In this document: in pieces, positions 1,571 to 61,839 of the stretch
Position numbering within the stretch: position 1 is the stretch's first letter
Layout: each line of letters begins with the position of its first letter
Assembly: GCF_004010195.1 (NCBI RefSeq)
Contig: NC_057756.1
Coordinates: 2,668,776 to 2,732,775 of the forward strand
DNA: 64,000 bases
Direction: 5' to 3'
DNA from: Chiloscyllium plagiosum
Taxonomy: Eukaryota
Made by a program: the position numbers and the translations under genes
Notes under the pieces: model-generated
Databases searched by the model: none
What the model was told of the DNA's origin: nothing
Seen by the model: only the letters and a program-made list of their open reading frames with translations

Positions 1571-1591
1571 AACTTGAAAACGAACGAATTA
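1571..1591 (+). CDS. 21-nt micro-exon A1, heptad xLENERI
   Basis: ttcactgttgcag|AACTTGAAAACGAACGAATTA|gtaagt; canonical splice sites, phase 1-1; homologous exons at 24929, 31406, 51603, 61819. Confidence 0.8.
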
Positions 1592-3019
1592 GTAAGTCTT
1601 TCTCTCATCACATAACTTAAACTTAATTTGTATCCTTTTTCGTCACAGGGATATGAGATTTCAATACTGTGAATTTTATTACGTTCCATATGTGTTGAAA
1701 ATATATTTGTGTGAAAAAGGTGATTTAGACAGTCGGTGAATCACGGATTTAGTTCACCAAATTGAATTATAATCAAAGTTAACACCTTCTTGCGAACTGT
1801 ATACGACAAATAACAGGAACTGTTGCATAGAAAGACTTTTTATTGCTAAACTGAAGTGGGAGATTTTATATCAGAGAAACGGCAATTATACAAATCCCTT
1901 GCGGTTTTCTATCGAAATGAACATAAATTAAATGAGGAATATACATCTAGCCTTTGGGGATAAACGAAATTTAAATATGAAAAAGAAGGAATGACAATTG
2001 ACAAAAGAAAGCAACCAATCTATTTCCAAAAAATTCTGTAGAAGAGCAATAAGATTGTGACATAACAGAAATGGTGAATATTACACATTGATTCGGATGA
2101 AAAATTATGGACTGATGGAAACGTGAGGCAAAAAGAACAGAAAATTCACATCAACATTGATAAATGAACCAAGACGTCTAATGTTGGAAAAAAACAGACT
2201 ACAAATCAACACCAACGACGAGGAGAACAGTGGGTAGATCTGCATAACTTCATGATGGTTTAGGTTTGTGAGATCTTGTCGTAAATGTGAATGTCAGGGC
2301 CGAGTGTCTTTTCACAATGTGCTTCCAAGTTTCTGCCGTGAATTATAAGCAAATATGGTTATTTAATGAGTAATTTTAATCCACTGGGTGATATTTCAGA
2401 AATCTGTCCATTTCAGTTAGTGACAATGAGGAATTTCATGAATCAAATGAACCAAACATGCATGAATATATTTGGAGTCTCAACTTTCATCATTCAGTGC
2501 AAAATGTATGTCAAAGAATGTCGACACAAACAAACATTCAGCGAATAAGGTGAGCACAACACTTGAATGTGGTTCGTGTACGCGGATTTGAAACATCCAA
2601 AACAAATCAAAACCAATTGACAAAAAAAATATATAACATCAGCTAATACACGGAATATTAGGCTACAAGATGGTCGTAAAAGGGCAATAGTCAAGTAGAT
2701 TATTTAAGGTCCTGGAAGAAACATTGGCCAAATTAATTTTGCTGAAAGAAATTAGGAATTATACACGTTCTGTTGCCAAACCTGGATGAATTCAGATAAA
2801 TGGAAATACAGCTTTAAAATAATCTATCACTTCCCATCTGCTCATCAACATGTGGCTACTTATTGTGGTGAAGTTATTCCAGTGGATAGCAAATCTGTTA
2901 ACTGGTATATTGTGAAAGTGATCATTTGCCCAGTACGCTGAAATACCGATATTCATGTTTAAACATGGGACAGTAAGTTATTCTTGCTGTCGTATCACAA
3001 TAGTCTGACCACAGCACAG

Positions 3020-3222
3020 GTGCTGCTCTCTTATTCAAAAGAAACGACTGGGGAGAGGGAGGACCGTGTGATTTAACCTGAGTGCTATTGGACCTCAAGC
3101 GAGGGAAGAGTTGAAGAATGCGTGTCCGACATGGTAACCACTAAGCAGTAATGGGAATTGAACCCATGCTGTTGGTATCTTACTGTAAATGAATGATCCA
3201 GTCAACTGGGATAAACCGGTTC
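3020..3222 (-). mobile_element. tRNA-derived SINE, degenerate
   Basis: GGGAATTGAACCC near 3153 is the reverse complement of a Pol III B-box GGTTCAATTCC; about 200 bp. Confidence 0.5.
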
Positions 3223-3554
3223 TCCACTGCCATATAACGGCTTCTGATCTAAAGAAATAGCATAAAGACACTGCTCAGCACCATTCACTGACTGGCTATA
3301 TTCTGAGTACTGACACACGGTGTACATGCTATTACCTACTGTCTTATTGGGTTACAGCTGCATGTTACGGTCAAAATAAGCTGTACTTGAGCGGTGCTCA
3401 GGCATGGATTATGTATGGTTACTCAGGAATGCAATAGCAGGAGACATCTAAAAACATCAGATGACAGCGGTCCAATGTGCACATTGGAATGTATGGAGGG
3501 TAGAAGATTGTTTCCTTGCGTGAAATTCTGGAAAGTAAACAGACTTGGTAGAAG

Positions 3555-4095
3555 ATCGAAGGTGATAGTGTAGGGTTTACTGACAGACTGGAGGCCTGTC
3601 CCAGTGGTGTGCCACAACAATCGGTGCTGGGCTATCGCTTTTCATTTTTCATTAAAAATTGATTTGGTTGGGACCATTGATGGAATAGTTAATAGGTTTA
3701 CATAGGACAGCAACTTTGTATATGTAGTGGACAGCGAAGGAGGTTCCCTGAGATTCTGATGCGATCTTGATCAGATGGGTGAATGAGCTGAGGTGTCGCA
3801 GATGGAGTTTAACTTAAAGAAATGTGAGGTACCATATTTTGGAAAGGCAACTTAGAGCTGATCATAACCATTTAATGGTAAGGGCCTGGGGAGCGTTGTT
3901 CATCAAAGAGACCTTGGAGTGTAGCTTCACTGTTCCATGAAAGTGAAGCCGTAGGTAGATGGGATAGTTTTTGATATGCTGTCCTTTATTGATCAAAGCA
4001 CCGAGTAGAGGAGTTCAGAGATCATGTATGGAAAATTGGTAAGGTTTTTTAGGAATATTGTGTGCAATTCGGTTCTCCCTACGGTCGGATAGCTA
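3555..4095 (+). mobile_element. CR1 LINE RT fragment
   Basis: gactggaggcctg...ggtgtgccacaa...tcggtgctggg (W-V-SGVPQGSVLG remnant); homologous to 17630-18200. Confidence 0.85.
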
Positions 4096-4099
4096 AAAC

Positions 4100-8700: not shown

Positions 8701-8764
8701 TCCAGGAACTGAAGAAATTTAAACCGTATATTCACTGGAGACCTCGTGACGTCTCCGACTTCCT

Positions 8765-10040: not shown

Positions 10041-10061
10041 AGTTCAGAAAATATCAAGAAG
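10041..10061 (+). CDS. 21-nt micro-exon B1, heptad (K/E)FRKYQE
   Basis: ttgcgtcttacag|AGTTCAGAAAATATCAAGAAG|gtgaga; homologues at 17180, 41322, 55255. Confidence 0.8.
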
Positions 10062-12330: not shown

Positions 12331-12342
12331 GCATTTATGTGC

Positions 12343-12967: not shown

Positions 12968-12988
12968 ATACGAAGAGGTGCAATAATG
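12968..12988 (+). CDS. 21-nt micro-exon C1, DTKRCNN; weak donor, possibly skipped
   Basis: tttactaatttgtccgccag|ATACGAAGAGGTGCAATAATG|gtgaca; +5 G of the donor lost and core Leu replaced by Thr. Confidence 0.4.
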
Positions 12989-17179: not shown

Positions 17180-17197
17180 AGTTCAGAAAATATCAAG
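17180..17197 (+). pseudogene. 18-nt B-type micro-exon B2, EFRKYQ; 3-nt deletion and weak donor
   Basis: attttacag|AGTTCAGAAAATATCAAG|gttata; identical to B1 except for one missing AAG; donor far from consensus. Confidence 0.55.
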
Positions 17198-21471: not shown

Positions 21472-21492
21472 AACATGCAGATAAAGAAGCCG
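21472..21492 (+). CDS. 21-nt micro-exon D2, EHADKEA
   Basis: tttaccccttgcag|AACATGCAGATAAAGAAGCCG|gtgagt; degenerate homologues at 28403, 46255, 56560. Confidence 0.75.
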
Positions 21493-21936: not shown

Positions 21937-21957
21937 ATCTGAAGAAGTGCAAGGATG
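21937..21957 (+). CDS. 21-nt micro-exon C2, DLKKCKD
   Basis: ttaatttgtcctacag|ATCTGAAGAAGTGCAAGGATG|gtgaga. Confidence 0.8.
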
Positions 21958-24928: not shown

Positions 24929-24949
24929 ATCTAGAAAATGAAAGAATTG
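24929..24949 (+). CDS. 21-nt micro-exon A2, DLENERI
   Basis: tttcacgtttgcag|ATCTAGAAAATGAAAGAATTG|gtgagt. Confidence 0.82.
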
Positions 24950-28402: not shown

Positions 28403-28423
28403 ATAATGCAGCCAAATAAGATG
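28403..28423 (+). pseudogene. Dead D-type micro-exon D3
   Basis: tttgcag|ATAATGCAGCCAAATAAGATG|atgggc; in-frame TAA and GT donor lost. Confidence 0.65.
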
Positions 28424-28840: not shown

Positions 28841-28863
28841 ATATGAAGAAAAGTACAAGGAAG
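28841..28863 (+). pseudogene. Dead C-type micro-exon C3
   Basis: tttactaatttgtcaagcag|ATATGAAGAAAAGTACAAGGAAG|ttgaga; 23 nt (2-nt insertion) and donor GT>TT. Confidence 0.65.
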
Positions 28864-31405: not shown

Positions 31406-31426
31406 ATCTTACAAACGAAACGATTT
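31406..31426 (+). pseudogene. Degenerate A-type micro-exon A3, DLTNETI
   Basis: tttcacgttttgag|ATCTTACAAACGAAACGATTT|gtgttt; GAG acceptor and weak donor. Confidence 0.55.
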
Positions 31427-35545: not shown

Positions 35546-36137
35546 GTGTGACGCTGTGGCCGGCACACTCACCCAATCACTATCATCACCCAAATTCACA
35601 AAAAAAGACGACGTTGTCTCATTTGGCACGCGAAGACCAGCATCTCAAACATTTCAACATCAATTCGTTTCTTTGTGAATTTCTAATCATCCATGTTTCT
35701 ATAATACTTGTTGAAAATTGACTGCGCACAAATGTAAACTGAGAATTAAATCTAACTGTCAAGCTTCAACTTATTCATTCACACTGTAATCGACTGTGTT
35801 AAGGGAATCCTATCCGTCCGCCTTGTTTTGAAAACAATACTTTCCAGATACCCTGCTATGAGCCCGACGTCCATAAATTCTCTATTGCATCAAACTATTA
35901 ACTAATACATTTCAGCACCAACTTACAATAAAATATGTTTCACCAAGAGCTCGATATAAATAATTCGTCATGCGCATTGCAAACAAACCATCAGCTTTTC
36001 CCCAATGAGCTCCAATGAACCCCTAAATCTTACCAAATTAGAGAGATATTCGAATAGGTCTGGCACATGCACTCTTAATATAGGCTTGATGAACAAATTA
36101 GCACTGGATTTGTACACAAATCCCAAATACTACTCCG

Positions 36138-38090
36138 GAATGTGGTGCTGGAAAAGGTAGGTAAGTCAGCATCCAAGGAGCAGGAGAATCAACGTTTCAG
36201 GAATAAGCCCTTCATCAAAAATGAGGCTTGTGGGGAGCGGGAAGGCAGATACATGGGAGAGGGCGAGTATGGAGGAGAAGGTAGCTGACAAAGCATTAGA
36301 TAGATTAAGGTGAGTGTGAAGGTGATAGGCTGGGGAAGAGGGTGGAGAGAGGATAGCTGCGAAGTTGGTGACTTGGTTCTGGGATAATGTTGGGGAGGTA
36401 AAAGGAAGAAACTATGAATATCCACATTGATCCCATATGGTTGCAGTGTCCCAAGACAGAATATGAGGCATTCTTCCTCTAATCGAGATTGGGTAGGTTT
36501 TAGCGCTGAAGTAGGTCCAGAACCTGCATGTACCTGGTGGAGTTGGAGGGGGAGCTGAAGTGTTCAAGCACAGTACAGTGGGGTTGGTTGGTGCAGTTGA
36601 CCCGAAGATTTTCTCTGAAATGATCCACAAGCTGGCGTCCTGTCTCCCCGATGCCCAGAAGACAACATTAGGTTCAACGGGTCCATTAGGGAACATAACT
36701 GGAGGTTTAAGTAGATTTTTGTCATTTGTGGTAGGATCCTTTGGATCCTTGGATGGAGGTGAGGGGAGTGGGGGTGTGTGCGGCTTTTGCACTTCCTGTG
36801 GTGGCTGGGGAAGGTGTCGCGAGTGCGGGTGTGGGTTAGTGGGAGGTGTGGACATGGAGAGAGAGTTGCAGAGGGAATGATATCTCTAGAACACTGATAG
36901 GTGGTGAGGGAAATATGTCTCTGATGGTGGGGTACATTTTTATGTGGTGAAAGTGGCGGAGGATGATGCAACGTAAGTGTAGGTCGGTGGGGTGAAATGT
37001 GAGTACCGAGGGTTCTGTGTTTGCTGCTTTGGGAGGGGTGATGTTCAAGGATGGTGGTGCAGCAGGTGGAGAAGATGTGCTGGATTGCATCCACCACCAC
37101 GTGGGAAGTCAATTTCCGATTTTGGAAGTAGAACGCCATCTCGGACTTTCTAATATTGAATTGGTTATAGACACGACAGACGGAGAGGAATTGTGAAGAA
37201 GGAATCGTGATTTTCACTAGGTCGGCTGGGAGGAGGTGTAGTCACTGTATCTGCGGTAGTCGATGGGCTTGTAGTGGATATTCATATTTGTCGCCAGAGA
37301 TGGAGATGGAGAGTTCCCGTAAGGGGGGGGGGGAGTTGTCCGAGATGGTGCAGGTGAATTTGAGTTCGGTGTGAAACGTTTTGTGAAGGAGATGAACTGT
37401 TCAACTTCCTCGTGCGAGGACGAGGTAGCGCCAATACAGTCATGAATGTATCAGAGGAACAGGTGGGGATGATGCGGCATAAGTTTGGAAGATGGACTGT
37501 TGAACGCATCCGACAAAGAGACAGGAATAGCCATGCTCAATATGGGTGGCCATGCTTACCCTTTGGTTTGATGGAAGAGAGAGGATTGGAAGGAGAAGTT
37601 GTTAAGGGTGAGGACTAGTTCAGCTAGGCGGAGGAATGAGTGGGAGGAAGGGTACTGCACAGGACGGTGTGATAGGCAGAAATGCTGGTTTTAGAGACGT
37701 TTGTCGTGGCAGATGGATGTGTACAGGGACTGGATGTCCATGGTGAGGACATCGATTTGTGGGCCGAGGAAACGAAAATCTTGGAGGAGGTGAAGTGGAT
37801 TGGTGTTCTGCCGAATATAGGAAGGGGGTTCCTGAACTAAAAGGAACAGGACGGTGTCAAGTTACGCACAGATGACTTCAGTGTGACAGGAGCAGGCTGA
37901 GATGATGGGTCAACCGGGGACGTCAGGTTTGTGAATTATTTTAAGAGGTAGAAACGGGCAGTGCAGTGTTTATGGACAATGATTTTAGAGGTTTTGGATT
38001 GAAGGTACCCAGAGGTGTGAGATTGAGGATGGTCTGAAAGATTATGGTTTGGTGATGTGACTTGAGGTCATGGTCGAGGGGAAGGAGGAA
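36138..38090 (-). mobile_element. Penelope-like element, 5'-truncated (RT, GIY-YIG and terminal repeat)
   Basis: Reverse-complement similarity to 38860-41055; terminal repeat with mutated hammerhead near 36188-36225. Confidence 0.85.
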
Positions 38091-38109
38091 GATTCACCAC
38101 CAGATTCAC

Positions 38110-41055
38110 GACTCCTGGCACAGTCACAATACCTGCTCTGCACAACAATTCCACCGGCGCAGTTGTTGCCATCACAGCCATTTTCACGCTTAAAAACATC
38201 ACTGTCCTGGATGCGAATGACTCCATCACTGCCGTCACACGTGATGTCTTTTTCACCAGCATTGTACAACGCTGGAAGTCTAACGTCACTTCTGTTAATG
38301 TCAATACTCCTTACCCTAAAATCACACCCACTCACGTGAATGTCTCCACCACACACTTAGTTCCAGCCACACTCGAGGTCCGAGTTACCATCCCTTCCGT
38401 ATGTTTACTCTTTCCCCAGACCACCCCCTCACTGAGGACGAACGTTTCGGTCTCAGCAAAGTCCTCGCCTTCATCCCACCATGATCTCAGATAGAGGAGT
38501 TCAACAGGAGTCTTGATCTTCAAAATTTGTTCCACGATCTACACCTCCGGGCCCAATTTTTCAATCGGACTATCCCCCACTCACCAAGGACCTCTTCTCT
38601 CGTCTCCAACACACCCAATCCACCTGGGCACCCTGTGTTGGCCTGTTACCCGCCATTGATCTCGTCACTTCTAACTGCCACCGTGACATCGACCGCCTTA
38701 ACCTGTCAACTTTTCTCGCTCACTCCAAACTCCCGCCCTCACAACGCGCTGCTCTCCACTCCATCCACTCCAACCCCAAATTCACCATCAAATCTACAGA
38801 CTCGCAGTTTGGCGCAATGACATATACAGCATTGAAGCCAGATGCTCGCTCGCACATACCTCTTTCTAACAACTTCACGACCATGACCTCGCCTCTCATC
38901 GCCAAACCATCATCTCTCAGAACACCCACAATCTCAACGCCTCTGGGTGCTCCCATTCGCAGGATCCAACCTCACAGTGTGTGAACGCTGCTCCGCCTGT
39001 TTCTACTTCCTATCAAGAATTTACAAACCTTACTTCCCCGATCCACTCATTTCAGCCTGCTCCTTTCACACTGAACTCACCGCTGTATACCTTGACATCA
39101 TTCTGTCCCCCTACATCAAGTACCTCCCTACTATGTTCAGGACACCACCCATGCACTTCACCACCTCCAAGATTTTCATTTCATCGGCCAGCAACACCTC
39201 ATCTTGACCATGGAGATTCATACCCGGTACACATTCATTCGCTGAAACGAAGGACTCCAAACCCTCAATTTCTTCGTCTCACGTAGTGCTGAACAGTACC
39301 TCCCACTGAAACTCATATTCACCTGGCTAAACTGGTCATCACGCTTAACAAATTCTCCTTCCAATTCTCTCACTTCCTTCAAACCAATGAGATAGCCATA
39401 GTCACCCACATGGGGTCCGGCTATTCCTGCCTCTTTGTCGGGATCGCAGAACAGTCTATCTTCCACACTAATAGCACATCATCCCCACCTGTTCCCCTGC
39501 TAATTTTATTACTGTATTAGTGCTACCTTGTGCTCCCACGAGGAAGTTGAACAGTTCCTCTACTTCACCAATACCTTTCACCCGATCTCAATTTCACCTG
39601 AACCAATTCGGAAACCTACCTCCCCTTCCTGGACATCTCCATCTGTGGCGACCGACAGACCACGGACATTATTCCAAACCGGGTAAAAACAATGATTGCA
39701 GGTGCTAGAAACCAGATTCTGGATTAGTGGTGCTGGAAGAGCACAGCAGTTCAGGTAGCATCCGAGAAGCAGTAAAATCGACGTTTCGGGCAAAAGCCCG
39801 TCATTAGGAATAAAGGCAGAGGCGGACATTACTTCAAACCTACCTAGTCCCACAGCTACCTAGACAACACCGCGTCCTACCCTACCTCCTTTTTAAAAAT
39901 GCCATCGTTATTCCCAATTCCTCTGGCTCCTCTGCATCTGTTCCCAGGATGATGAATTCCAGCTTACAAAATCCCAAATGTTGTTCTTCCAAGATCACAA
40001 TTTCCCTTCCACCTGGTCGAAGATGCCCTCCAGCACACCTCCTCCATTTCCCGCACAACCATACAAGAAACACACAGCAACAATTGCAGCAAGGACAGCA
40101 CTCCTCAGCCCTCATTTTCCAACCGACACCCTCTGCATACATCTCATCACCTGCTGTCTCTTCGACCACCTCCAGGCGGACCCCCCCACCCCAGCGGAGA
40201 CATAATTCACTCCCCACCCCTATCAGTGTTCTGGAGAAAACATTCCCTCTACGACTGCCTAGTCATGTTCACGCCCCACAGCAGCTAACACCACTCTCCC
40301 AGCACCTTCCTCAACCAAAGCAGAAAGTGCAAAACCTACGCCCACACAGCCCCCCCTCATTTTCGTCCAAGAGCCCAATGGATCGTTCCACATCCAACGC
40401 AAATATCTCTCTACTTCGAACAATTTCATCTGCTCTCTCCGTTGCACACGACGTGGTCTGCTCTACATTGATGATTTCGGATTCCTTCTTGTGGATCATT
40501 TCAGAGAACATGTCTGGAACACCCGCACCAACCAACTCCACCATCACGTAGCTGAATACTTAAACTCTCACTTCCACTCCACCAAGGGCATGCAGATACT
40601 GGACCTCCTCCATCACCATACCCTAGCCACCCGAAGCTTGGAAGAAAAATGCAACAAATTCCACCTTGGGAACCTGCGAACACAAGGGATCAATGTGGAT
40701 GTCAACAGTTTTCACATTTCCCCTCGCTCCCACTTTATCCCAGTCCCAAACCACCAATTAGGCAACGGCCTCCTGACCAGTCCATCCCTTTTCCCAGCTA
40801 TCCGCTCCACCCACATATCCGACCTATCAAGTTCTCCCTCACCTTGATCTACCGATTGCTTTTTGCTTTCTCAACTACCTTCCTTCCGAAATCGAAGCCC
40901 TCCCATTTACCTCTCTGCTCTGTGGCCCACAAGCCTAATTTCTGATGAAGCATTTCTGCCCAAAAGGTCGATTCTCCTGTTCCTCGAATGCTACTTGACA
41001 GGATGTGCTTTTCCAAGTCTAATCTCCAGCTTCTGCAGACGTCACTTTCTCCTCA
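38110..41055 (+). mobile_element. Penelope-like element, near full length, decayed
   Basis: PLTEDER..LSKVLAFIP (LSKGL.F.P motif) near 38425-38480; SFQFSHFLQTNEIAIVTHMGSGYSCLFVG (RT motif B) near 39355-39445; PFLDIS near 39625; CTRRGLLYI..HFREHV (GIY-YIG) near 40440-40520; 3' terminal repeat 40935-41055. Confidence 0.88.
39681..39822 (-). mobile_element. Solo Penelope terminal repeat nested in the Penelope ORF
   Basis: Flanked by an 18-bp duplication cggacattattccaaacc (39663-39680) / cggacattacttcaaacc (39823-39840). Confidence 0.8.
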
Positions 41056-41321
41056 GCAGCTATCACTATAAATTTGTTTCATTTAATCTGTGCTTGCATT
41101 GTGTAGGCACTTGCCATTCTTCCTGTTTTGGCTTCATTGAATGGTCATGAACTGATATGGAATTATTTATCTGCCAGTGTTGTGTTAGATTGAGCCTTCG
41201 GATATAGTGGAATTCTGGTTTCAGAACATTGGCAAAAGAATTGTACTAAAATTCTTCCAACTTTCACGAAAAATAGCGAATGCCTTCTTCCGTGTTTCAG
41301 CTTTTCTATTGTGCCTTACAG

Positions 41322-41341
41322 CGCCAGAAAATATCAAGAAA
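41322..41341 (+). pseudogene. Dead B-type micro-exon B4
   Basis: gtgccttacag|CGCCAGAAAATATCAAGAAA|gagaca; 20 nt and no GT donor. Confidence 0.65.
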
Positions 41342-41941
41342 GAGACAACACCAAAACACTGCAGATCCTCTGCCAAAAAAATGACACCTTTTATATGTAT
41401 TCAAGGTTGATGGAGCTGAACTAATAAAATATGAACGAGTGCTTTACTCAGAAGAAAGGAAATTATTAAACTAATCCCAATGCTCTACAGATATTTAAAC
41501 TGGAGACATGGCATGAAAGAATTTATTGGGAATTTGTCTGCCCATTATAAACATGCCTAACATTAACTATCAACATTTCAAAAACTGGTTCAATTTTGTA
41601 CATTATCACAATACGCAGAACATTGGCATTTATGCAGTCAGTCGTAACACTTGGCAGTATTCATGACATGTACGTTGATCTCTTACTGCAACCAGTGAAA
41701 TGGACCAGTCCGTTCTTTCAAGACATTTCAAGAAGCTGCCCAGGATGTAACATTTCTACTTTTCTTAAGCAGACATAAATTGCATACTTCAGGAGTGATG
41801 CAGCTGGTCAGAGAACTCGGTTTTAAACAAGCAGAAGTTATTTACAGACTAGTGCATGAATGACAAGCAAGGTAACCAGATGATAAAATAACAATTATAT
41901 GAAATCTCAGCAGATGCAATGCCTCCCACAATTCAACAAAG

Positions 41942-42390
41942 TTGAGAGTATGTTCCTGGAAAAACACAGCAGGTCAGGCAGCATCCACGGAGGAGGAAAA
42001 TTATCGTTTCAGGCCGGGGCCCTTCATCAGGAATGAGACTATCAGACGATTCATGAGGTGGGTGCTGAGGAAGGAAATGTGGCTGTGGTAGCCAGTGTGC
42101 TTGAGAACGTGGCTGAAGAATTTCAGAGCAGAGTAGAGGACTTGGGGAGTAGAGTAAGAGAGAGACTCATTGAGATTTTTCCAGAGAGAGGAGGAGAAGT
42201 TTTTCATGGTAGGCGTCCTTGGAAGAGGCTTTGCAGTAAGGTTGAAATCAGCTAGGAGTCAGCGGGCCTGTAGGTGTTGGAGACCAGAGTTAAGAGTGTG
42301 AATGTGGAAAAGCACAGCAGGGCAGGCAGATTTCACGGAGCAGGAAAATCAATGTTTCGGGCCGATGCCCTTCACCAGGAATGAGGCTGG
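41942..42390 (-). mobile_element. Penelope fragment with two tandem terminal repeats
   Basis: ggaaaa.cacagcagg.caggcag...gtttc.ggcc....gcccttca.caggaatgag occurs twice. Confidence 0.75.
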
Positions 42391-43464
42391 AAAATCAACG
42401 TGCAACATTCGAAAGCACACCTGTTTGAAAAAGGTAAATTTTAAAAAAAAGGTTCTTAGAGGAGAGAACGACGGCAGACAACATCACACCTAGGATCAGT
42501 GACTAAAACATAAACCTTCTTTTTTAACTAGCAGCTTCTTGTGGCGGTCAGCAAAAGGAAACCAACCTAGAAAAAACACTGAGTTGGGAGATATGGTATC
42601 TCCCCCGACATGGAAAAATTATTTGTAAAAATAAAAAAAACTGTAATTAGTTTTGCCTGATGTTTGCCTGGGTAGTAACTTTTACCGATAATCAGCGTAT
42701 CCTAACATCAGAAAAATCGGAACACCTACCTTTTACAACTCATTTTTTGAGAATAGTATAGAAACGATAACCTTCTTAAAGGTGCAGCATCGTGACAATA
42801 AGCAGCAGAATTAAAAGTTACGGTAATTCTCGTCAATAAACACAATCAATGACAAATTTATTGACTCATATGAATACTGACATTAATACGTTTGGGGATT
42901 CACGATGCATACAAAACATTTCTACATTCAAAATTTACCATCCAGTAAATCCATCCATTTCTTGGCAAGCGAAAACACAAGAGATCCCTCGGACATGCAA
43001 AGGCACGCAATCTCGTCCTCTACCTTACTCGAATTCAGCTTTTCAAGTAAGCAAACAACGCAAGTGGTAATGACCAAGATCTTTTGCCTGGAGTAGGGTA
43101 GTCTTGAACCAGAGGGCAAAGGACTAACGTGATATGGAAAGATTTAAATGGGACCGAAGGGGCACCGTTTTCACGCAGTTTGTTGCATGTGTGGAATGAG
43201 CTGCTAGAGAAAGTGGTGAAGTAACAATTATAAGTTTTAAAAGGAATGTGAATGGGTATGTGAATAGGAAGCATTGAATTGATATGGGCCAAATTGCGGC
43301 AAAAGAGACCCGATTAGTTTAGGATTTCTGATTCACGTATACAATGTGGATGCAATTATCTGTTTCCATGCTGTACATCTGCATGTTTCTCGGACACTTA
43401 TTACCTGTTAGCTTTTATCCGTACACCACCATTTGAATAATCTCTTTCCTCATTATCAAAACGA

Positions 43465-44990
43465 CTCTTAGAGTCATAGAGTCACAGAGAAGTACAGCAC
43501 AGAAACACACCCATCGGTCCAACTCATTCTTGTCGACCACATATCCCAACCTAACTTTGTCCCATTTGCCAGCACTTGGCCCATATCCATCTAAACTCTT
43601 CCTATTCATATACCCATGCAGATGCCTTTATAAATGTTGCAATTTTACAAGCCTCCACACCATGTTCTGACAACTCAAACCATACACGCGGCATCTGCTG
43701 CGTGAGGATGTTGCCCCTTCGGTCCTTTGTATATTTACCTCTCACCATAAACCTATGCCCTCTATTTCTGGACTCTCCCACCCCAGGAAACACATATTGA
43801 CTATTTACACTATTCGTGTCCCTCATGAATGTAGAAACCTCGACGAGGGCATCCCTTCGACTCAGATTCTTGCCGAAAACAACCCAGACTATCAGCCTCT
43901 CTCCACGGGTCATTTCGTCCAACCTTGGCAACATCCTTGTAAATGGTTGTGAACTTTGTTTTAAAAAAAACAACATTTTTCGAATTGGACATGGACCAGA
44001 TTTGCCAGCAATATTGCAAAGGTGGCCTAACTAACTTCTTGTACAGCCGCAAGATGATCTCTCAGATCCTATACTCAGTGCCCTGACAAATAAAGGAACG
44101 TATCCCAAAAGCCTTTTCACTATCCTATCAACCAGCGTCTCCACTTTCAAGGAGTTATGCATCTGCACTCCAAGGTCACTTTCTTCAGCAACATTTCCAC
44201 AAAACTTGTCATTAAGTGTATAAGTTCTGCTCTGATTTTCTTTTTCAAAATGCAGCATTTTGCATTTATTTAAATTAATCTCCATCTGCCACAACTCACC
44301 CATTTCGGGCAACATGGTGTCTCAATGGTTGGCACTGCTGCCTCACACTGCCAGGGACCCAGGTTTGATTATTGCCTCAGGCGGGTGTCTCTGTGGAGTT
44401 TGCACATCCTCCCCGTGTCTGTGTGGATTTTCTTAGGTTTGCTCTCACAATCCAAAGATGTGCAGGTCAGGTGAATTGATCATGCTAAATTGCTTTGTGT
44501 GTGTTAGTCAGGAGTAAATATTCGGTAAGGGAATAAGTCTGAGTGATAAGTCTTCATAGGCTTGGTGTGGGCTTGTTGTGTCAAATCGCCTGTTTCCATA
44601 CTGTTTTGTATCTAACCTGATCAAAATCCGATTGTAATCTGAGGTAACCCTCTTTGCTGTCCATTACACCTCCAATTTTGGTATCATCTGCAAACTTACT
44701 AATTATCCCTCCTATGTTCATATCCAAATCATTTATACAAATGACAAAAATAGTGGACCTAATACCAAATATTGTGACACTCCATTGGTCACAGGCCTAC
44801 AGTCTGAAAAACAGACATCAATCATATCTACCTCTGTCTTCTACCTTCGAGCCAGCTCTGTACCTTAATATCTAATTCTCCCTGCATTCCATAAGATCTA
44901 ATCTTGCTCACCAATCTCAGATGGGGAACCTTGTCGAACGTCTTTCCGAATTTCATATAGATCACGTCCACCGCTCCTGCCCTCATCAAT
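43465..44990 (-). mobile_element. CR1 LINE 3' 1.2 kb interrupted by a SINE
   Basis: Minus-strand RLYKKLVRPPLQYCWQIWS and WQMEINLNKCKMLHF; tail agagtcatagagtca. Confidence 0.88.
44307..44616 (+). mobile_element. HE1-like V-SINE inserted in CR1
   Basis: ggcaacatggtgtctcaatggttggcactgctgcctcac (A-box region), V-domain ctgtggagtttgcacatcctccccgtgtctg. Confidence 0.88.
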
Positions 44991-46254: not shown

Positions 46255-46275
46255 GTTATGCAGCGAAAGAAGCTA
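46255..46275 (+). pseudogene. Dead D-type micro-exon D4, GYAAKEA
   Basis: ttttcccccttcag|GTTATGCAGCGAAAGAAGCTA|atttca; donor lost. Confidence 0.6.
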
Positions 46276-46668: not shown

Positions 46669-46689
46669 ATATGAAGAAGTGCAAAGAAG
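46669..46689 (+). CDS. 21-nt micro-exon C4, DMKKCKE
   Basis: taattcgttgtacag|ATATGAAGAAGTGCAAAGAAG|gtgaga. Confidence 0.78.
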
Positions 46690-51602: not shown

Positions 51603-51623
51603 ATCTCACAAACAAAAAAATTG
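51603..51623 (+). CDS. 21-nt micro-exon A4, DLTNKKI
   Basis: tttcacggttacag|ATCTCACAAACAAAAAAATTG|gtgagg. Confidence 0.72.
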
Positions 51624-53480
51624 GTGAGGCCATTTATAATTCGACTCCTGAGACTACGTTGCAATGACCTTACTAGCCACAATGATACTGACAAGGCAAT
51701 GCCACGGAATTGTATGATGCTGTGCATGCATTGAAAATACCTGTGATACGGCATAACCTGACTTTAAATGTGGGATGAAGGAAAGAGCACAATCTCGGAT
51801 TTTGTTTTAAAATGTGAAATATAACCAATGTTATAAACATTTTCAAAAAAATACCTATACCATGTATAACTGGAATGGGATACAAATCAAATTCTTGGTA
51901 AACTGAACGGACAAAATTTTGTTTCAGAGTAGAAATGTTATTGAATTGCCTTTTCTTTGTTCCATATGTGGATTAATTGAATGGATCATGTACATCTAGC
52001 TGTAGAAGAAGAACAACAATTTTAATGTGAAGAAGAAGGGTCAAAAATGTAAAAGTGAAGGGGAAAACAACAAATCTATGATGCTAAACTTTCAAGAACG
52101 GTGGAAGATTGGGATTAAGCAGAAAATGTGAATAACAGAAAAAATGGATAAGTGAAGGAAACGTGAGACAAACAGGATATAAAAGAAAATAACATGGACG
52201 TTAGCTGACACGAAAAATACCAAAAGTGGTGAAAACAAAACTACCAAAATGGCTACACTGTTGCAAATGTTTGAATAAAAATCAACATCAGTTACTGGGG
52301 GGACAGTGATGAGATCCAAAGAAACTGAATATAATTTTCGCTTGTAGGATCTGTGAGTAGAAACAAAAGAAATGCTCGAATTCATTTTCCATAAAGTTCT
52401 GTCAATTTTGTTCTTCGAATTTTGAACATGTACGCACTATTGTTCAAATAGGTCTAACCTATCAGGTAACTTTTCAGAAATCTGTATATTAACTTTAACA
52501 ACGATGACAAAATTCATGAATCCAATAATATGAAGGAAATAAATTAATAGTTTTGGAGGCATAAGTTTCAACTGTGAGTACAAAAAGCTACTCAGAGAAT
52601 GTCAACACAAAAAGAACATGCAGAAAAGCTGCTGAACACGAAAGATAAATGTACTTGCAACTTGTAGGTTTTCAAAACTCGAAAGTATGTCAATCCTAAT
52701 TTACAAGAAAATGAAAAGTGATAACACCTAATGCAGGAAATATTAAGTAACAAGGCTGTCAAAAAGGCCATATTAATTAGTTCTTAAAGATCGTGGGATA
52801 AAGAGGCTAAATGATCTTGAGGTGAACTAAATTAAGACTTACAAACACGTCCTGCTTGTTAAAGCTGGAATGCATCTGAACATGAACTAGATGCTGTAAA
52901 ATACCCTCTCTGCGCTCCACCCCTCACTGAGGTGAAGCTACTTTCTCTGGGACGTTATTCCTATTACGTTGGCCATGGATTTGGTTGCATTTGACATTTA
53001 ATTTCTGCTTTGATTCTGCTATTGGCATATATGCCGAGCTGTTATTTTCACTTACTATCCACATCACCTTATATACATTGTTGGGAAGGTGGCTTGAAAG
53101 TAACTGTTGACAAAAACACGGCCACCATGTTCCATTTTTCCCATGCAGAAACGATCCAAACATCCTTCGAAAGTGATGACAACATTTTGACAATCACATG
53201 TACAATGCAAACACAGGTAGTGCATGGAAAGCTATTGCCAGCAATTAGTTTATATAGTAATTTTCTTGACAAAGTTGTGAATACGTCAGGTTGGTTGGCC
53301 AATCAAATCTTTGATATTAGGTTGAATTTCAGAATTTTCATACAGTGTAAAATATTAGCGATCTAATTATTGTCATTGGTAACTCTTGGACAAAGATAGG
53401 AATTTTCAAAGTTTGTGCGAAGATTTGTAGCTCGGGTGATCGTTGTTGTGGTTCTGTTCGCCGAGCTGGAAGTTTTTTTT

Positions 53481-53520
53481 GCAAACGTTTCGTCCCCTGG
53501 CTGGGCGACATCATCAGTGC
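53481..53520 (-). ncRNA. Minimal type I hammerhead ribozyme motif
   Basis: Minus strand: GCA CTGATGA T GTCGCCC AGCC AGGGGAC GAAAC GTT TGC. Confidence 0.7.
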
Positions 53521-53590
53521 TTGGGAGCCGCCTGCCAAGCGCTTCTTTGATGTTTCCTCCGGTGTTTATAGCGAGCTGGAAGTTTTTGTT

Positions 53591-53630
53591 GCAAACGTTT
53601 CGTCCGCTGGCTAGGCGACATCATCAGTGC
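53591..53630 (-). ncRNA. Minimal type I hammerhead ribozyme motif
   Basis: Minus strand: GCA CTGATGA T GTCGCCT AGCC AGCGGAC GAAAC GTT TGC. Confidence 0.68.
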
Positions 53631-53744
53631 TTGGGAGCCTCCTGCGAAGCGCTTCTTTGATGTTTCCTCCGGTGTTTATAGTGGTCCAGACAACTATAAA
53701 CACCGGAGGAAACATCAAAGAAGCGCTTCGCAGGAGGCCCCCAA

Positions 53745-55254: not shown

Positions 55255-55275
55255 ACTTCAGAAAATGTCCAAAAG
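55255..55275 (+). CDS. 21-nt micro-exon B5, DFRKCPK
   Basis: gttgtgtcttacag|ACTTCAGAAAATGTCCAAAAG|gtgaga; canonical sites but encodes a proline. Confidence 0.65.
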
Positions 55276-56559: not shown

Positions 56560-56580
56560 ATTACGAAGCCAAAGAATATA
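56560..56580 (+). pseudogene. Dead D-type micro-exon D5, DYEAKEY
   Basis: tttttccctttgcag|ATTACGAAGCCAAAGAATATA|ggaact; donor GT>GG. Confidence 0.6.
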
Positions 56581-57014: not shown

Positions 57015-57035
57015 ATCTGAAGAAGTGTCAAGAAG
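57015..57035 (+). CDS. 21-nt micro-exon C5, DLKKCQE
   Basis: ttttactaatttattctacag|ATCTGAAGAAGTGTCAAGAAG|gtgaga. Confidence 0.8.
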
Positions 57036-57379: not shown

Positions 57380-57698
57380 TCTGAAGCAGAGGACACAGGT
57401 TAAAAATAAGGGGTAGGCTATTTAGAACATAATTGAGCAGAAACGTCTTCACCCAGAGAGTGGTGTGTGTGTGTGGAATGCTCTGCCCCAGAAGGCTGTG
57501 GAGGCCAAGTCTCTGGATACTTTCAAGAAAGAGTTGGATATAACTCTTAATGATAAAAGAATCATGGGTTATCGGGATAAGGCAGGAACAGGATACAGAT
57601 TGAGGATGATCAGCCACGATAGTAAAGAATGGTGGTGCTGCCTCGAAGGGCTGAAAGGCCTACTCCTGCACCTATTGTCTATTGTTTATTGTTTATTG
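57380..57698 (+). mobile_element. CR1 LINE 3' end (different subfamily)
   Basis: RGHRLKIRGRLFRT..FTQRVV / VWNALPQKAVEAKSLDTFKKELD; tail ctattgtctattgtttattg. Confidence 0.85.
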
Positions 57699-58170
57699 AC
57701 GACATATCGAATTGCCAGGATAATTTCCCAAATTTACACCACAGTCCGTCTATTTTGGGAATTCAATCTCAGGTAATTTGATAGTTAGAAGAGTGTCGGA
57801 TAATGTACATTTTCGAAAGTGCTGAAGGAGTGTACAAATGATTGCATTCCACCAACAATTATCACATCAAACATTCTGATAACCTTCGTGTATCTCTCAT
57901 CACAGACACGACTCTCAAAAATGCATGTCAGGCACAATACACAGATAGCGAACCCTATCATCCGTATCACTCATCTCAATTACTCCTTCTCCTCGGTAGT
58001 CACCTAGAGAGGACCTCTTAAAATGCAAATGACAAGGTACGTGAAAAATTCAGACAAGGGAAAACACTTGCCATTGGGCATAAGAAGAATTTCGTCTTGC
58101 ATCAAATAAAGACATAGACTCCAAAATAAATTACTCTGTTCATTTCCATAGTAAGCTGTTAGCAAATTCT

Positions 58171-59034
58171 CATTGAGGAACTCAATTATCCAAATATCAA
58201 TTATCTGAATATCAGATTTCCCAAATGAGATCTTGAAATCCTGACAGATACATAACGTCAAAGAGCTGTTTCGACCCTGATCGTGTCTTTTATCTACAGC
58301 TACAATGAGTAAAAACAGACTCAGCTCACTGAAAAGTTGCCAAAAGCAGTCCTGGATAGTCCAGGCACTGCCTCCAAATAACTAACATCCTGCCCTCTAA
58401 CTCTCCATCCATTCATTCCTGTAGTTCTAGACAGGGGTGTACTGTAAACTCCGCCTTCCCCAAATAATTTCTCCAACATGGTCCCGTACAGGGCAAAGGT
58501 GGAAACTGTCAAAAAGTTGCAGACAAAAAGTTGTGTGTTTGCGTCCGTGTGTCCGTGAGCGCACACACGTGTTTGGAGACTTACTCGACAAACGCAGCAG
58601 CAGTCTTAATGTTGGTGTACAGTCTGGCTGCACCGGGGGATGAAGGGGTTGGGGTCAGACGGTTTGCAGGGGTGGAGTGGGTTTGGACGCTGGGTGGAGG
58701 TTCACTGGACGCGGGGTTGACGTGGACAGGGAAGCGGGAATAGACGGGGTTTGGGGTGGCTGGGGTTGGGGCGGGGCGAACAGGGTTTAGGGGAGGGGTG
58801 GGACCAGAGGGATTTGTGAGGCAGACGGGGAGCGGGTTTGGAGTGGGCGGGGGTGCAGACAGATTATTGGGGTACAGAGTTTAGGACAGGGGTGGGGGCT
58901 AGTGATTGGTATGCTGCTGCCTCATCTCCTGAACGGGGAGCAGACTTCACAGAAACCTCCGAGCCCCAGGGGAAATTGATTATTCTGAGGAAACAGTGCC
59001 CACCCATTTCGTTTGGATAATCGAGGTTCTTCTG
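58171..59034. mobile_element. Non-autonomous Tigger/pogo-like DNA transposon with internal G-rich tract
   Basis: Imperfect terminal inverted repeats gaggaactcaattatccaaa / tttggataatcgaggttcttctg; insert is absent from paralogous modules. Confidence 0.6.
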
Positions 59035-59661
59035 CACACTCTCATTGAATCAGTGATATGGAGAATAACCCAACGGCATACTAAGCACATGTTCACTGCT
59101 CTTATGCTTGCAGTTTATGAAAATGGTAAATCTGCGTATTCACCATCCCTTCAATCTGACGAAAATGATTTTAGGTACATTTTGTTTCGAAATTCCGCTC
59201 CCACTTCCAATTTGCCATTTACCATCTAACCAATTATTTAATTTCGCACGCCCAATTCATTGTAACAATTATGCTATTTCACCAAGATTTCTTTCTTCAT
59301 CATCTATTTCGAGAGAAGTTGTAAATGCAGAGGATCTGATGTGTCCAAAATTATCCATTAGGAAATCCTTTTTATTCTTTTTTTCGTAACAATGAAATGT
59401 GTGAGCCCCGATCTCCCAATTCACTTTGGTTTGGTTTGTTTTTAGCAAGCAGTCTCTTTGAAGCTAATGGTAAAAAAAAATTAGCTGGGTATCCAAAGTA
59501 ATAGTCTAATGCTGATCCTCTTGCTCTCTGAAGTTTCTCTTGTAAGACCCTACTTGTGTTATCTTCGAGGAGAAAGTGAGGTCTGCAGATGCTGGAGATC
59601 AAAGTTGAAACTTTATTGCTGGAACAGCGCAGCAGGTCAGGCAGCATCCAGGGAACAGGAG

Positions 59662-59697
59662 ATTCGACGTTTCGGGCACAGGCCCTTCTTCAGGAAT
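59662..59697 (-). ncRNA. Minimal type I hammerhead ribozyme motif
   Basis: Exact reverse complement of 59817-59852. Confidence 0.75.
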
Positions 59698-59816
59698 GAA
59701 GAAGGTTAGATGGTAAATGGCAAATTGGAAGTGGGAGCGGAATTTCGAAACAAAATGTACCTAAAATCATTTTCGTCAGATTGAAGGGATGGTGAATATG
59801 CAGATTTACCATTCTC

Positions 59817-59852
59817 ATTCCTGAAGAAGGGCCTGTGCCCGAAACGTCGAAT
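59817..59852 (+). ncRNA. Minimal type I hammerhead ribozyme motif
   Basis: ATTC CTGAAGA A GGGC CTGT GCCC GAAAC GTC GAAT: core CUGANGA and GAAA, stem II GGGC/GCCC, palindromic ACGT stem III, GUC cleavage triplet, stem I ATTC/GAAT. Confidence 0.75.
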
Positions 59853-60879
59853 CTCCTGTTCCCTGGATGCTGCCTGACCTGCTGCGCTGTTCCAGCAATA
59901 AAGTTTCAACCTACTTGTGATATGTTCTTCTCTGTGCCAAGAGGGTGTTCATGGAGATATTGCAATTGTTTCGAGCAAAATCATTTTGTAGTTATAGAAT
60001 TAAGTGCTATTTTTCGGGTCAGTTATCTCATTTTCTATTCTGTTCACTTTTGTTCATGTGCAGATGAATTCTGTTTTTTTGAAAGCAGACGGGTTTGACG
60101 AGCTGCTCCGCTCCTGCCCAATCCACTCGACTCCTACTAAAAACACCGAGAAGATTTAAGAATTGTTTTAAGGATGTCGGGCCTAGTCCATAACAACATT
60201 ACACTCAGTTTACAGAAACCCTAAAATAATTTCTCGTCTGCAATACCTAATCCTTACACAGCATACTGTACTCCTCACTCTTCTGGCAACCAATGCTCGC
60301 ACCTACAACCAGACTGACTAAGCCAACTACACCATTACAACATCACTCCTTCTTCCAATCTGGCTCAATATGAATAGAATAATCTGATTAGGAATACAAA
60401 CTATTCAAGCCCACATACGTGCAGAAAATATTTGTCACCCATTTAGTATACAAAAATGAATTTCTGATTTTCTGCCAAGAACAATTTTTAAAAATAAATT
60501 AATTAAGATCTGTTTAACGTTCGTTCAAAGCAGAAGGAAAAAATCGAGAAATGTGTTGACTATTTGGACACTCTTCGCAACCTGCCAGCAAAAGTCTGGA
60601 GCTTTCTGACTGGGAGGAGTTCTGAAATGGACGAGCAAGCCATGATATTTTGAATACCATGGGGAGGAATGTACTGTAATCTCTGAATGAATTCCCTTTT
60701 TGAATGTTGTTCAGACTTTTGTTGAATAATTAGTGGCGGTATGTTGGTCCATTGGGGACTTCATGAAGTGAGAGATATTGTGCCAATATATTCTGCATAA
60801 TATTTGAATTGAGACGTGAGTGGAGTTAAGAAACATAAACAGAAAACTAACTCAGCCGTTTTGTATTATTTAAAATTGA

Positions 60880-61725
60880 TGATTTGCTGACAATGAAGAA
60901 GGTAGTTGAAGTGAACAACGGGGTCTTGATGAGCGGAGCCAATGTGCAGAAGACTGGTAGATCCCATTTCATTTAGAACTATTCTGGGACTGCATTTGGT
61001 TAAGGCAACCAGGAGATGACTTACCCAGTTAATTGCCGGCCTTGGTGAGTGTTGTCAAACAGAGAGTTCGAGTATTCAGGTCACGGTTCCTTGTAAGTGT
61101 GTCATCAATGGACAGGGTGGTGAAGAAAAGGTTTGCCACTCTTGCCTTCATTGATCAGAGCATTCCATTTTGTATTTTGGTAGGTATTGGCGAGAACATA
61201 TTTGGAGTACTGCACACAGCCGTGCTTTTGACTAAAAAAATTAAATTGGATAGTGTGCGGAAGCATATATTCAAAGGCTTCTGATACGATTTGAGGATCT
61301 GAGATTTAAGGAGAGATTGAATTGATGAGGCTATATTACATTGGAAATGCAAGGTGACTGTTGGTAAGATGCAAGCATATAAATCCAACAATGGAGTAGA
61401 CGAGGTAATTGATCAAGTTTTCTTTTCCTCCCTTCGCGTGGACAACCTCGAAATTGGAGGGAAACGTTTTAATTTGAGAGGGAAGATATTTAAAATATAC
61501 CTGAGGGGCGACATTTTCATGAAGTGGGCATTGTGGAGATGACCTTAACTGATTTCGAAACTGATAGATGCAAATCGAGTTACAGCATTTGAAGACTTTT
61601 GGACGAGTACATGAATACGAAAGATTTAGGCCATACATTTTCAAATATGAGCAGTTTCGAATGAGAAGCCTGGTTGAGATGGAAGCGTTAGACTGCAGGA
61701 TATGTTTTCCTTGCTGTATGCCTCC
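60880..61725 (+). mobile_element. Old CR1 fragment upstream of exon A5
   Basis: VSSMDRVVKKRFATLAFIDQSI, tttggagtactgca, CR1 3' UTR. Confidence 0.72.
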
Positions 61726-61818
61726 CGGACTCGCCAGTGATTTATGTGATGTTGTTAATTGAATTTGTTTCCATTGCAACATGTGATTGCATTTAGTGTT
61801 CCATTGCATTTTTTTCAG

Positions 61819-61839
61819 ACCTTGCAAATGAAAAGACTG
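61819..61839 (+). CDS. 21-nt micro-exon A5, DLANEKT
   Basis: ttgcatttttttcag|ACCTTGCAAATGAAAAGACTG|gtgagt. Confidence 0.78.

Follow-up and report, generated by a model that had tools for sequence, protein, structure and literature searches.

A 430-kb array of 21-nt exons in the shark Chiloscyllium plagiosum and its predicted heptad-repeat product

Ten micro-exons and the array that contains them

The window, by which we mean the whole 64,000-nt stretch of Chiloscyllium plagiosum DNA that was analysed, carries ten 21-nt segments on its + strand, each preceded by a pyrimidine-rich tract and CAG and followed by GTGAG or GTAAG. The original prediction had named these ten exons with CAG acceptors and GTRAG donors, and every one was borne out at its position; translation in phase 1-1 returned the same ten heptads without a stop codon, with L, F or M at position 2 in 9 of 10, as had been claimed. 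Eight decayed copies of the array exons also lie within the window and had escaped that first reading. The pattern CAG+21+GTRAG occurs 11 times on the + strand of the window and twice on the - strand; the 11th + strand match (37298) lies inside a GC-rich repeat block and is not heptad-like. A comparison of the window with Rfam gave no match. The intact exons and the decayed copies are as follows (window positions; the letter classes are those of the four-class module described below):

1571..1591, + strand, intact 21-nt exon, class A (L-E-N-E-R-I type); CAG acceptor, GTAAGT donor, phase 1 open
10041..10061, + strand, intact 21-nt exon, class B (F-R-K-Y-Q-E type); CAG acceptor, GTGAGA donor
12968..12988, + strand, class C copy, borderline or decayed; 21 nt, donor GTGACA, hydrophobic position now Thr
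17180..17197, + strand, class B copy, decayed; 18 nt after a 3-nt deletion, donor GTTATA
21472..21492, + strand, intact 21-nt exon, class D (x-A-x-K-E-A type); CAG acceptor, GTGAGT donor
21937..21957, + strand, intact 21-nt exon, class C (L-K-K-C-K-D); CAG acceptor, GTGAGA donor
24929..24949, + strand, intact 21-nt exon, class A; CAG acceptor, GTGAGT donor
28403..28423, + strand, class D copy, dead; in-frame TAA, donor replaced by ATGGGC
28841..28863, + strand, class C copy, dead; 23 nt (2-nt insertion), donor TTGAGA
31406..31426, + strand, class A copy, decayed; GAG acceptor, weak donor GTGTTT
41322..41341, + strand, class B copy, dead; 20 nt (1-nt deletion), donor GAGACA
46255..46275, + strand, class D copy, dead; exon sequence intact, donor GT lost (AT)
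46669..46689, + strand, intact 21-nt exon, class C; CAG acceptor, GTGAGA donor
51603..51623, + strand, intact 21-nt exon, class A; CAG acceptor, GTGAGG donor
55255..55275, + strand, intact 21-nt exon, class B; CAG acceptor, GTGAGA donor
56560..56580, + strand, class D copy, dead; donor replaced by GGAACT
57015..57035, + strand, intact 21-nt exon, class C; CAG acceptor, GTGAGA donor
61819..61839, + strand, intact 21-nt exon, class A; CAG acceptor, GTGAGT donor

The ten window exons are real and are members of a much larger run, with at least 40 such exons over ∼430 kb; the array extends far past both window ends, a feature absent from the original prediction. Its length specificity was assessed by counting AG+N+GTRAG sites preceded by 20 bases of which 12 or more are pyrimidines, for N from 9 to 69 on both strands of the 344 kb around the window. 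At N=21, there were 41 sites on the + strand (36 open in phase 1) versus 7 on the - strand (4 open), while all other values of N gave 1 to 16 sites on either strand. When sites were required to be open in phase 1 and to have a GTRAG donor, the counts over 314 kb were 34 (+) and 4 (-).

In motif searches the array mapped to the + strand of a single contig (C47), where it spans ∼432 kb and begins no less than 367 kb upstream; the introns between its exons measure 0.4 to 39 kb. All six matches to a class B exon with its flanks fell at this locus and none elsewhere, and 12 of 14 matches to the C-type exon motif were on the + strand of C47. A longer motif had 24 of its 45 matches there, 22 of them within the array (2,301,247 to 2,725,783), while the other two, at 3.749 and 3.799 Mb, may belong to a second array; as a control, the backward pattern gave 17 forward and 14 reverse matches genome-wide. 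Splice signals were uniform across 33 exons, with C at -3 in 32/33, a GTGAG donor in 29/33 and 75% pyrimidines from -20 to -3, and the exons themselves were 69% purine compared with 51% for the strand.

Very long introns, and short units with strong splice sites, might also be expected of a chance pattern, of a dispersed repeat, or of non-coding splice decoys acting as recursive-splicing stepping stones in a giant intron. However, the excess is seen at 21 nt alone, on a single strand and at a single locus. Furthermore, a single frame is open in all intact copies, versus 20/31 and 22/31 for the others (openness being part of the definition of intact), and residues follow a strong pattern by heptad position; a decoy needs neither the pattern nor the open frame. 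We consider such an origin extremely improbable, and the window probably contains the 3′ part of a single, very long series of symmetric protein-coding exons of 21 nt.

A four-class module and the decay of exon copies

Searches with nhmmer recovered 50 homologous copies, all on the + strand, which fall into four classes with the recurring order A-B-D-C, equivalent to a module of 28 residues. The module appears to have been multiplied by tandem duplication. In the younger part of the run, the window included, a unit of ∼6.5 to 7 kb carrying the four exons in that order would have been duplicated in tandem again and again; introns would later have been enlarged by retroelement insertions, and single exon copies would have died, mostly through loss of the donor site. 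A 1.16-kb C-D tandem adjoins a sequence gap at -4949..-4450, and the copy number at that point is provisional.

Of the 50 copies, 31 are intact and 19 decayed, with donors lost in 12/50 and acceptors in 2/50. Match to the class consensus was 96.7% for the acceptor AG, 86.1% for the exon, 85.6% for the donor GT and 77 to 78.5% for the distal flanks. The full AG..GTRAG arrangement was kept in 25/44 young copies, versus 18.8% expected at the flank rate (binomial P 2e-8, a value to be read with the caveat that copies are not independent). Frame-breaking lesions were found in 0/31 splice-intact and 6/19 splice-broken copies (Fisher P=0.0017). Within the intact exons, codon changes from the class consensus comprised 19 synonymous and 50 non-synonymous substitutions, and mismatches numbered 26, 22 and 38 by codon position, a weak third-position excess; the amino-acid identity of the exons is barely constrained. 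Exon identity was 76% in decayed and 77% in intact copies, and thus exon-versus-flank conservation alone cannot separate live from dead exons.

The proportion of copies already decayed, a non-synonymous to synonymous ratio near neutral, and the equal exon identity of intact and decayed copies are all compatible with a decaying relic that is no longer expressed, in which the intact copies have merely not yet mutated. No RNA read has been seen either, in a comparison that carries no weight on expression: two poly(A) single-cell RNA runs of the same species label (X5 and X6) had 0 reads on L014:1-4500, the segment with the final exons of the array and a putative terminal one, with 2 to 6 in 100 of each run sampled and with reads made of 21-nt pieces unlikely to align. 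For the same segment, run X7 matched a 30-nt repeat piece and nothing else, and a DNA run (X1) gave even coverage. A further point against the array being used is that forty consecutive 21-nt exons, across introns of this length, present a hard task for exon definition. On the other hand, splice sites are retained three times as often as neutrality would predict, frame lesions are confined to copies that also lost a splice site, and exons that are old, diverged and separated by more than 300 kb still show the heptad pattern. We regard a dead array as improbable and the run as probably coding.

The predicted product

Conceptual splicing of 33 exons in phase 1 yields 230 aa without a stop. Across 32 heptads, an acidic residue (D or E) fills position 1 in 23 and a hydrophobic one (L, F, M, Y, I or V) fills position 2 in 31; at position 5, 11 heptads have Cys, 15 have Cys, Tyr, Trp or Ala, and 14 have a charged residue. 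Hydrophobicity power at a period of 3.5 was 106.8, compared with a maximum of 63.9 among 1000 shuffles. A hydrophobic stripe is therefore present, although its register differs from that of chicken BG and ‘d’ is only half filled.

The exons end in G in 30/33 cases and begin with A in 27/33, so that any junction mostly encodes Asp, Glu or Ala; since all exons are phase 1-1, with a final G and an initial A or C in almost every case, any pair could be joined in frame. Each join would supply an acidic first residue and a hydrophobic second residue (heptad ‘a’); the residues after these would be basic or polar, and position 5 (heptad ‘d’) would often be Cys or Tyr. Once spliced, the exons would encode 230 to 300 residues or more of helical rod, which probably pairs into a two-stranded coiled coil stabilised by g-e′ salt bridges. 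The rod could be lengthened or shortened one heptad at a time, through skipping of exons or as copies are gained and lost; the original prediction had proposed that symmetric exons tune length in this way, and the idea follows from the phase and the exon-end bases. What the sequence shows directly is the exon anatomy, the module structure, the strand and length specificity, the restriction to one locus and the pattern of decay; splicing, expression, dimer formation and the nature and place of the remaining protein are at most predictions. The most likely reading is that the array codes for a long rod of helical structure, as part of a giant gene neither end of which was found. Taken as a whole, a run of 21-nt exons in a giant gene, multiplied by tandem duplication and encoding a heptad rod of adjustable length, is probably the best explanation of the locus.

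Host gene and relation to BG and butyrophilin genes

The array had been assigned, in the original prediction, to an expanded BG/butyrophilin-like tail or to the coiled-coil stalk of another membrane protein. As regards the first, the likeness in exon design holds: according to PMC5938342 and PMC4046983, chicken BG tails are encoded by tandem 21-nt exons with a split first codon, many per gene (27 to 37 exons), and the array likewise consists of tandem one-heptad 21-nt exons with a split first codon. By the same two accounts, chicken BG tails and the array also share a charged-residue-rich product with a predicted coiled coil, groups of exons repeated by duplication, length variation via exon number and alternative splicing (predicted in the case of the array), and heptads without a B30.2 after them (none within 100 kb of the array). 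The array differs in its regular four-exon, 28-residue module, in its hydrophobic codons (2 and 5, versus the 4th and 7th in chicken BG), in the frequency of Cys, and in that the IgV and TM exons that are part of chicken BG were not found in the scanned DNA near it. Size and host differ as well, the array occupying ∼432 kb of a shark genome whereas chicken BG genes are generally known as compact. A chicken BG gene is approximately 100 times smaller than the gene to which the array would belong.

Three other systems invite comparison. Mammalian butyrophilins, ERMAP and MOG (PMC4046983) resemble the array in having small phase-symmetric juxtamembrane exons, located after the membrane span and ahead of the domain that follows. 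The mammalian genes, however, have few such exons, generally coding for about one heptad each, and then a B30.2 exon, while the array has at least 40. In schistosome micro-exon genes (MEGs), short symmetric exons supply nearly all of the coding region, and skipping therefore gives in-frame variants of the protein; MEGs share the short symmetric exons with the array, but belong to flatworms and encode small secreted proteins, with variable exon lengths, no heptad pattern and no homology to the array. Triadin, junctin and aspartyl beta-hydroxylase (ASPH) are very large genes in which many tiny exons code for a luminal Lys/Glu-rich region containing Cys, but these regions lack the strict 21-nt heptad design. 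This identity was rejected for the array, as matches to PF05279, the model of the family's N-terminal membrane region, were found on C4, C3, C20 and C5 only, and none on C47 (all 34 candidates scored).

In the search for a host gene, the + strand frames examined, which reach from 180 kb upstream to 100 kb downstream, gave no sign of an Ig, transmembrane or B30.2 exon. Stop-free + strand frames of at least 65 aa (296 + 54, exclusive of 11 that cross a locus boundary), from -180 to -82 kb and from +62 to +164 kb, had no match to V-set, Ig or SPRY, nor did 150 frames of 36 to 64 aa between +64.7 and +94 kb. The B30.2 (PRY-SPRY) exon expected downstream of a butyrophilin-type gene was absent from the + strand frames scanned to +164 kb; the nearest scored SPRY on C47 was at 4,577,660, 1.85 Mb away (150 of 293 candidates scored). 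Upstream, no V-set match was seen in the + strand frames of at least 65 aa from -180 to -82 kb, but the array itself continues to at least -367 kb; the start of the gene lies beyond the DNA covered, where an IgV/TM exon may be found. Genome-wide, no V-set lay near the array among 150 scored of 1319 candidates, and the same was true of the CD80-like C2-set Ig exon of butyrophilins (150 scored of 302). C47 is rich in C2-set_2 Ig exons, with 12 matches among those 150, all at 5.69 to 10.2 Mb, and a V exon at 10.206 Mb is, by the look of the translation, presumably a nectin/PVR-type V domain and not BTN-like. On C37, the 8 kb that precede the B30.2 exon of a candidate Ig-plus-B30.2 gene contain 904 bases read as N and otherwise showed no heptad exon of 21 nt.

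Over 344 kb, the analysis found no conventional host-gene exon. Open frames of at least 150 aa in this region all look like retroelement remnants or low-complexity sequence; a zf-MIZ match (L004:3599-3793) was read and judged to be chance, and a weak SPEF2_C match to be compositional. For the 48-aa read-through tail past the last C-like exon (L014:967-1110), comparison with longer proteins gave no homologue and Pfam gave no match.

The array may be the cytoplasmic tail of a BG/butyrophilin-family gene, with the signal peptide, IgV and TM exons upstream and the gene ending soon after the heptads, in the manner of chicken BG. Besides the shared exon design, phase 1 suits this placement, being the phase of Ig-superfamily exons; the lack of a C-terminal domain in the scanned frames to 100 kb downstream is as expected for a BG-type gene without B30.2, and in the literature searched 21-nt exon arrays were described for BG alone. 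Against it stand the V-set and C2-set_2 results given above, hydrophobic positions unlike those of chicken BG, the 100-fold difference in gene size, and the candidate C37 gene, with no heptad exon seen in the 8 kb before its B30.2. We hold this origin to be possible, though tentative.

It is doubtful, but conceivable, that the array instead encodes the stalk of another protein, whether membrane-bound, secreted or a cytoskeletal rod, for example an extracellular neck with interchain disulfides at d. Cys makes up 4.8% of product residues, unusually high for a cytoplasmic coil, with the concentration at position 5 already described; the absence of Ig exons from the scanned frames, and a 28-residue super-repeat of the kind known from rod proteins, also suit this reading. 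However, the frames scanned downstream of the array gave no match to a lectin, collagen or other domain, triadin/junctin/ASPH-type genes lie elsewhere, and no family besides BG/BTN has such an exon design in the literature searched.

We consider the array to be the known heptad-exon design in a new form, with BG/butyrophilin membership partly supported. A bolder version, which we think rather unlikely, is a stand-alone giant ‘ruler’ gene made nearly entirely of one-heptad micro-exons (at least 40 over 0.43 Mb), in which the length of a disulfide-capable coiled-coil rod would depend on combinatorial exon choice and on the continuing birth and death of exons; it would be independent of or ancestral to bird BG tails. 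Were this true, it would be the most extreme natural test of how the spliceosome defines consecutive 21-nt exons across tens of kilobases.

Long tails built from one-heptad exons have so far been described for bird BG genes. If the array is expressed, the shark case would either put this design near the base of jawed vertebrates or mean that it had two origins. Expression would also make the locus a display of exon birth and death, in which each of the four exon types is represented by live copies and by dead ones close at hand. Dozens of consecutive 21-nt exons with introns of up to 39 kb would exceed what exon-definition models, gene finders and aligners accommodate, and genes of such design have probably been missed or mis-annotated in large genomes.

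Micro-exon signal and its extent

A regular-expression scan of the window for CAG + 21 nt + GTRAG returned 11 matches on the + strand and 2 on the − strand. Ten of the 11 are the exons claimed in the original prediction, with exact coordinates and a pyrimidine-rich tract before each; the eleventh, at 37298, does not resemble a heptad exon and falls in a repeat block of high GC content. The count was then extended to 344 kb, made up of the window and 280 kb of contig around it (window coordinates −180,000 to +164,000): AG + N + GTRAG sites were tallied on both strands for each N between 9 and 69, provided that pyrimidines made up at least 12 of the 20 nt upstream. At N=21 there were 41 sites on the + strand (36 open in phase 1) versus 7 on the − strand (4 open), while every other N gave at most 16 sites on either strand. 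Since the excess is confined to N=21, the + strand and phase 1, the signal is specific to one length, strand and frame, and the micro-exon observation is confirmed.

Recognition of very short exons is aided by strong splice sites and purine-rich exonic enhancers. Among 33 exons read directly, C occupies −3 in 32 and the donor is GTGAG in 29; positions −20 to −3 are 75% pyrimidine, and the exons are 69% purine versus 51% for the strand.

Genome-wide searches of the 3.56-Gb assembly placed all six matches to a class B exon with flanks at the array locus. On the + strand of the array-bearing contig, C47, fell 12 of 14 matches to a C-type exon motif, 15 of 42 to a shorter motif (at most one mismatch; two more on unplaced contigs) and 24 of 45 to a longer motif, for which a backward control pattern gave 17 forward and 14 reverse matches genome-wide. 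Of those 24, 22 lie between 2,301,247 and 2,725,783. Motif matches plus the final exon, which lies at window +64,738, give an array span of ∼432 kb with at least 40 exons that look intact (33 were read directly, 7 come from motif matches alone). The two remaining matches, both to a C-type exon with 2 mismatches, lie ∼1 Mb downstream on the + strand (C47:3,748,899 and 3,798,987) and may represent a second sparse array or a paralogue.

Several repeats lie within the window. The block at 36000-44000, which holds the 37298 match, is GC-rich (0.49 and 0.43 versus ∼0.38 elsewhere), carries long Pro/Ser/Thr-rich open frames on both strands, and is presumably a nested retroelement insertion enlarging one intron. 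Five ∼100-nt copies of a SINE-like repeat, family D1 (60 to 80% identity), occur at 36125, 39714, 41937, 42285 and 59600, and a 110-nt tandem unit is present in two copies (95% identity) at 53462-53681.

Exon classes and the duplicated module

Profile searches with nhmmer, using exons plus flanks as profiles, resolved four exon classes, on the + strand throughout and in the recurrent order A-B-D-C.

Exon classes and additional copies (window coordinates)
Class A, + strand: L-E-N-E-R-I type
Class B, + strand: F-R-K-C/Y-Q-E type
Class D, + strand: Y/F-A-A-K-E-A type
Class C, + strand: L/M-K-K-C-K-E type
12968, 17180, 28403, 28841, 31406, 41322, 46255, 56560, + strand: eight decayed copies within the window, overlooked in the original prediction
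−173766, +64718, possibly +92203: three more good exons, off-class or at edges
+64965, + strand: C-like exon with a GTAGGT donor

Because intron flanks are conserved within classes, the duplicated entity is a genomic unit and not the exon alone. This unit measures ∼6.5 to 7 kb, in agreement with the repeat spacings, and carries a four-exon, 28-residue module. In total, 50 homologous copies were found (A 10, B 10, D 12, C 18), of which 31 are intact: they are 21 nt long, free of stops and bounded by an AG acceptor and a GTRAG donor. Intact exons are separated by introns of 401 to 39,326 nt (median 3,460 nt). The 19 decayed copies show lost donors, lost acceptors (two copies), lengths of 18, 20, 22, 23 or 25 nt and two in-frame stops. 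Exon death was asymmetric among copies from −82 kb to +62 kb, with donor GT lost in 12 of 50 versus acceptor AG in 2 of 50 (Fisher P=0.008). Five intact exons in the order C-D-C-D-C form a 1.16-kb tandem unit in the flanking locus L013 (−4056 to −1719), adjoining an assembly gap at −4949..−4450, where copy number is probably collapsed or polymorphic. An identical C-type exon is found on two unplaced contigs, C40851 and C100091.

Conceptual product and constraint

Spliced conceptually in genomic order, the 33 exons yield 230 residues with no stop. Heptad position 1, encoded by the split codon, is Asp/Glu in 23 of 32 cases and Ala in 5; exons end in G (30/33) and begin with A (27/33), so the junction residue is acidic or Ala for nearly every pairing. 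At position 2, 31 of 32 heptads carry L, F, M, Y, I or V; Lys, Arg, Asn or Ala predominate at positions 3 and 4, residues at position 5 include Cys (11/32), Lys (8/32) and Glu (4/32), and position 7 is Glu in 18 of 32. Hydrophobicity power at a 3.5-residue period was 106.8, whereas 1000 shuffles reached 63.9 at most, partly a consequence of the 7-residue repeat, and the 230 residues include just two Pro and one Gly. As judged from sequence, the product would fit a long helix in which position 2 corresponds to ‘a’ and position 5 to ‘d’, ‘g’ being acidic and ‘e’ basic. Such an arrangement would suit a parallel two-stranded coiled coil, with a ‘d’ stripe just half hydrophobic; given an extracellular rod, Cys at ‘d’ could form interchain disulfides.

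Match to the class consensus was 96.7% for the acceptor AG, 86.1% for the exon, 85.6% for the donor GT and 89% for donor +3 to +5; distal flanks matched at 77 to 78.5%. Of 44 copies in the array's younger part, 25 kept AG..GTRAG, versus 18.8% expected at the flank rate (binomial P = 2e-8, which is too small because copies share ancestry). Frame-breaking lesions occurred in 0 of 31 splice-intact versus 6 of 19 splice-broken copies (Fisher P = 0.0017), as predicted if some exons are live and others dead. Counting against strong coding constraint are the codon changes of intact exons relative to class consensus (19 synonymous, 50 non-synonymous), the mismatches at codon positions 1/2/3 (26, 22, 38) and the exon identity of 77% in intact pairs versus 76% in decayed pairs. 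The apparent targets of selection are splice sites, frame and the type of residue rather than its identity. A relic would be compatible with the codon changes and the exon identities, yet is improbable given the retained splice sites and the lesion split; we consider this probably a real coding micro-exon array.

Host-gene search and comparison with BG genes

No host gene was found in Pfam scans of + strand frames or genome-wide domain searches. The scans took in 296 + 54 stop-free frames of the + strand at least 65 aa long (−180 to −82 kb and +62 to +164 kb; 11 more that straddle a locus boundary excluded), together with 150 shorter ones of 36 to 64 aa (+64.7 to +94 kb; the 370 short frames past +94 kb excluded). 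They recovered only reverse-transcriptase, endonuclease, RNase H, integrase and GIY-YIG pieces and weak chance matches. Among scored genome-wide matches the nearest SPRY lies 1.85 Mb from the array, and none lay near it among 150 scored of 1319 V-set candidates or 150 scored of 302 for C2-set_2. Triadin/junctin-type genes, considered as hosts, map to other contigs. In the portion read of two poly(A) single-cell runs (just 2 to 6 in 100 of each), no reads fell on the 4.5 kb with the last exons.

Elsewhere on C47 (10.7 Mb) are 12 of the 145 CD80-like C2-set Ig matches found genome-wide (150 of 302 candidates scored), all at 5.69 to 10.2 Mb. A V exon at C47:10,206,275 has, to judge by eye from its translation, the look of a nectin/PVR-type V domain. 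A retroelement in the flanking locus L023 (927-3379; +154.9 to +157.4 kb) carries a GDSL-lipase/esterase-like frame followed by endonuclease and reverse-transcriptase frames; a decayed relative of its esterase part, judged by eye, explains a 288-aa open frame at +84.6 kb. The sole match to a possible RNA run, X7, is a 30-nt piece of a repeat other than D1 in the locus holding the last exons (L014:2972-3003).

A B30.2 exon, which the original prediction had proposed seeking downstream, is absent from the scanned + strand frames, and the array ends at ∼+65 kb without a recognisable domain. By analogy, this end would fit a protein terminating soon after the rod, like chicken BG. The 5' end of the array lies upstream of the sequence examined, so an upstream IgV/TM exon is possible.

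In chicken BG genes (PMC5938342, PMC4046983), signal, IgV and transmembrane exons precede 27 to 37 exons of 21 nt, the first codon of which is split, and a 3'UTR exon comes last; mammalian butyrophilins retain few heptads followed by a B30.2 domain. Relative to chicken BG, the shark array is alike in exon design (21-nt exons, split first codon) and unlike in its ∼432-kb scale, four-exon module, heptad register and Cys content. The proposed BG/BTN-like tail is partly supported, by its exon design; no Ig or B30.2 domains were found in the scans. Membership of the BG/BTN family specifically is doubtful, and a stalk of another protein is rather unlikely. Our literature search found 21-nt exon arrays described for BG only, and no paper on 21-nt heptad exons in cartilaginous fish. 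The array is a variant of an already known exon design, new in scale, module, register and Cys content.
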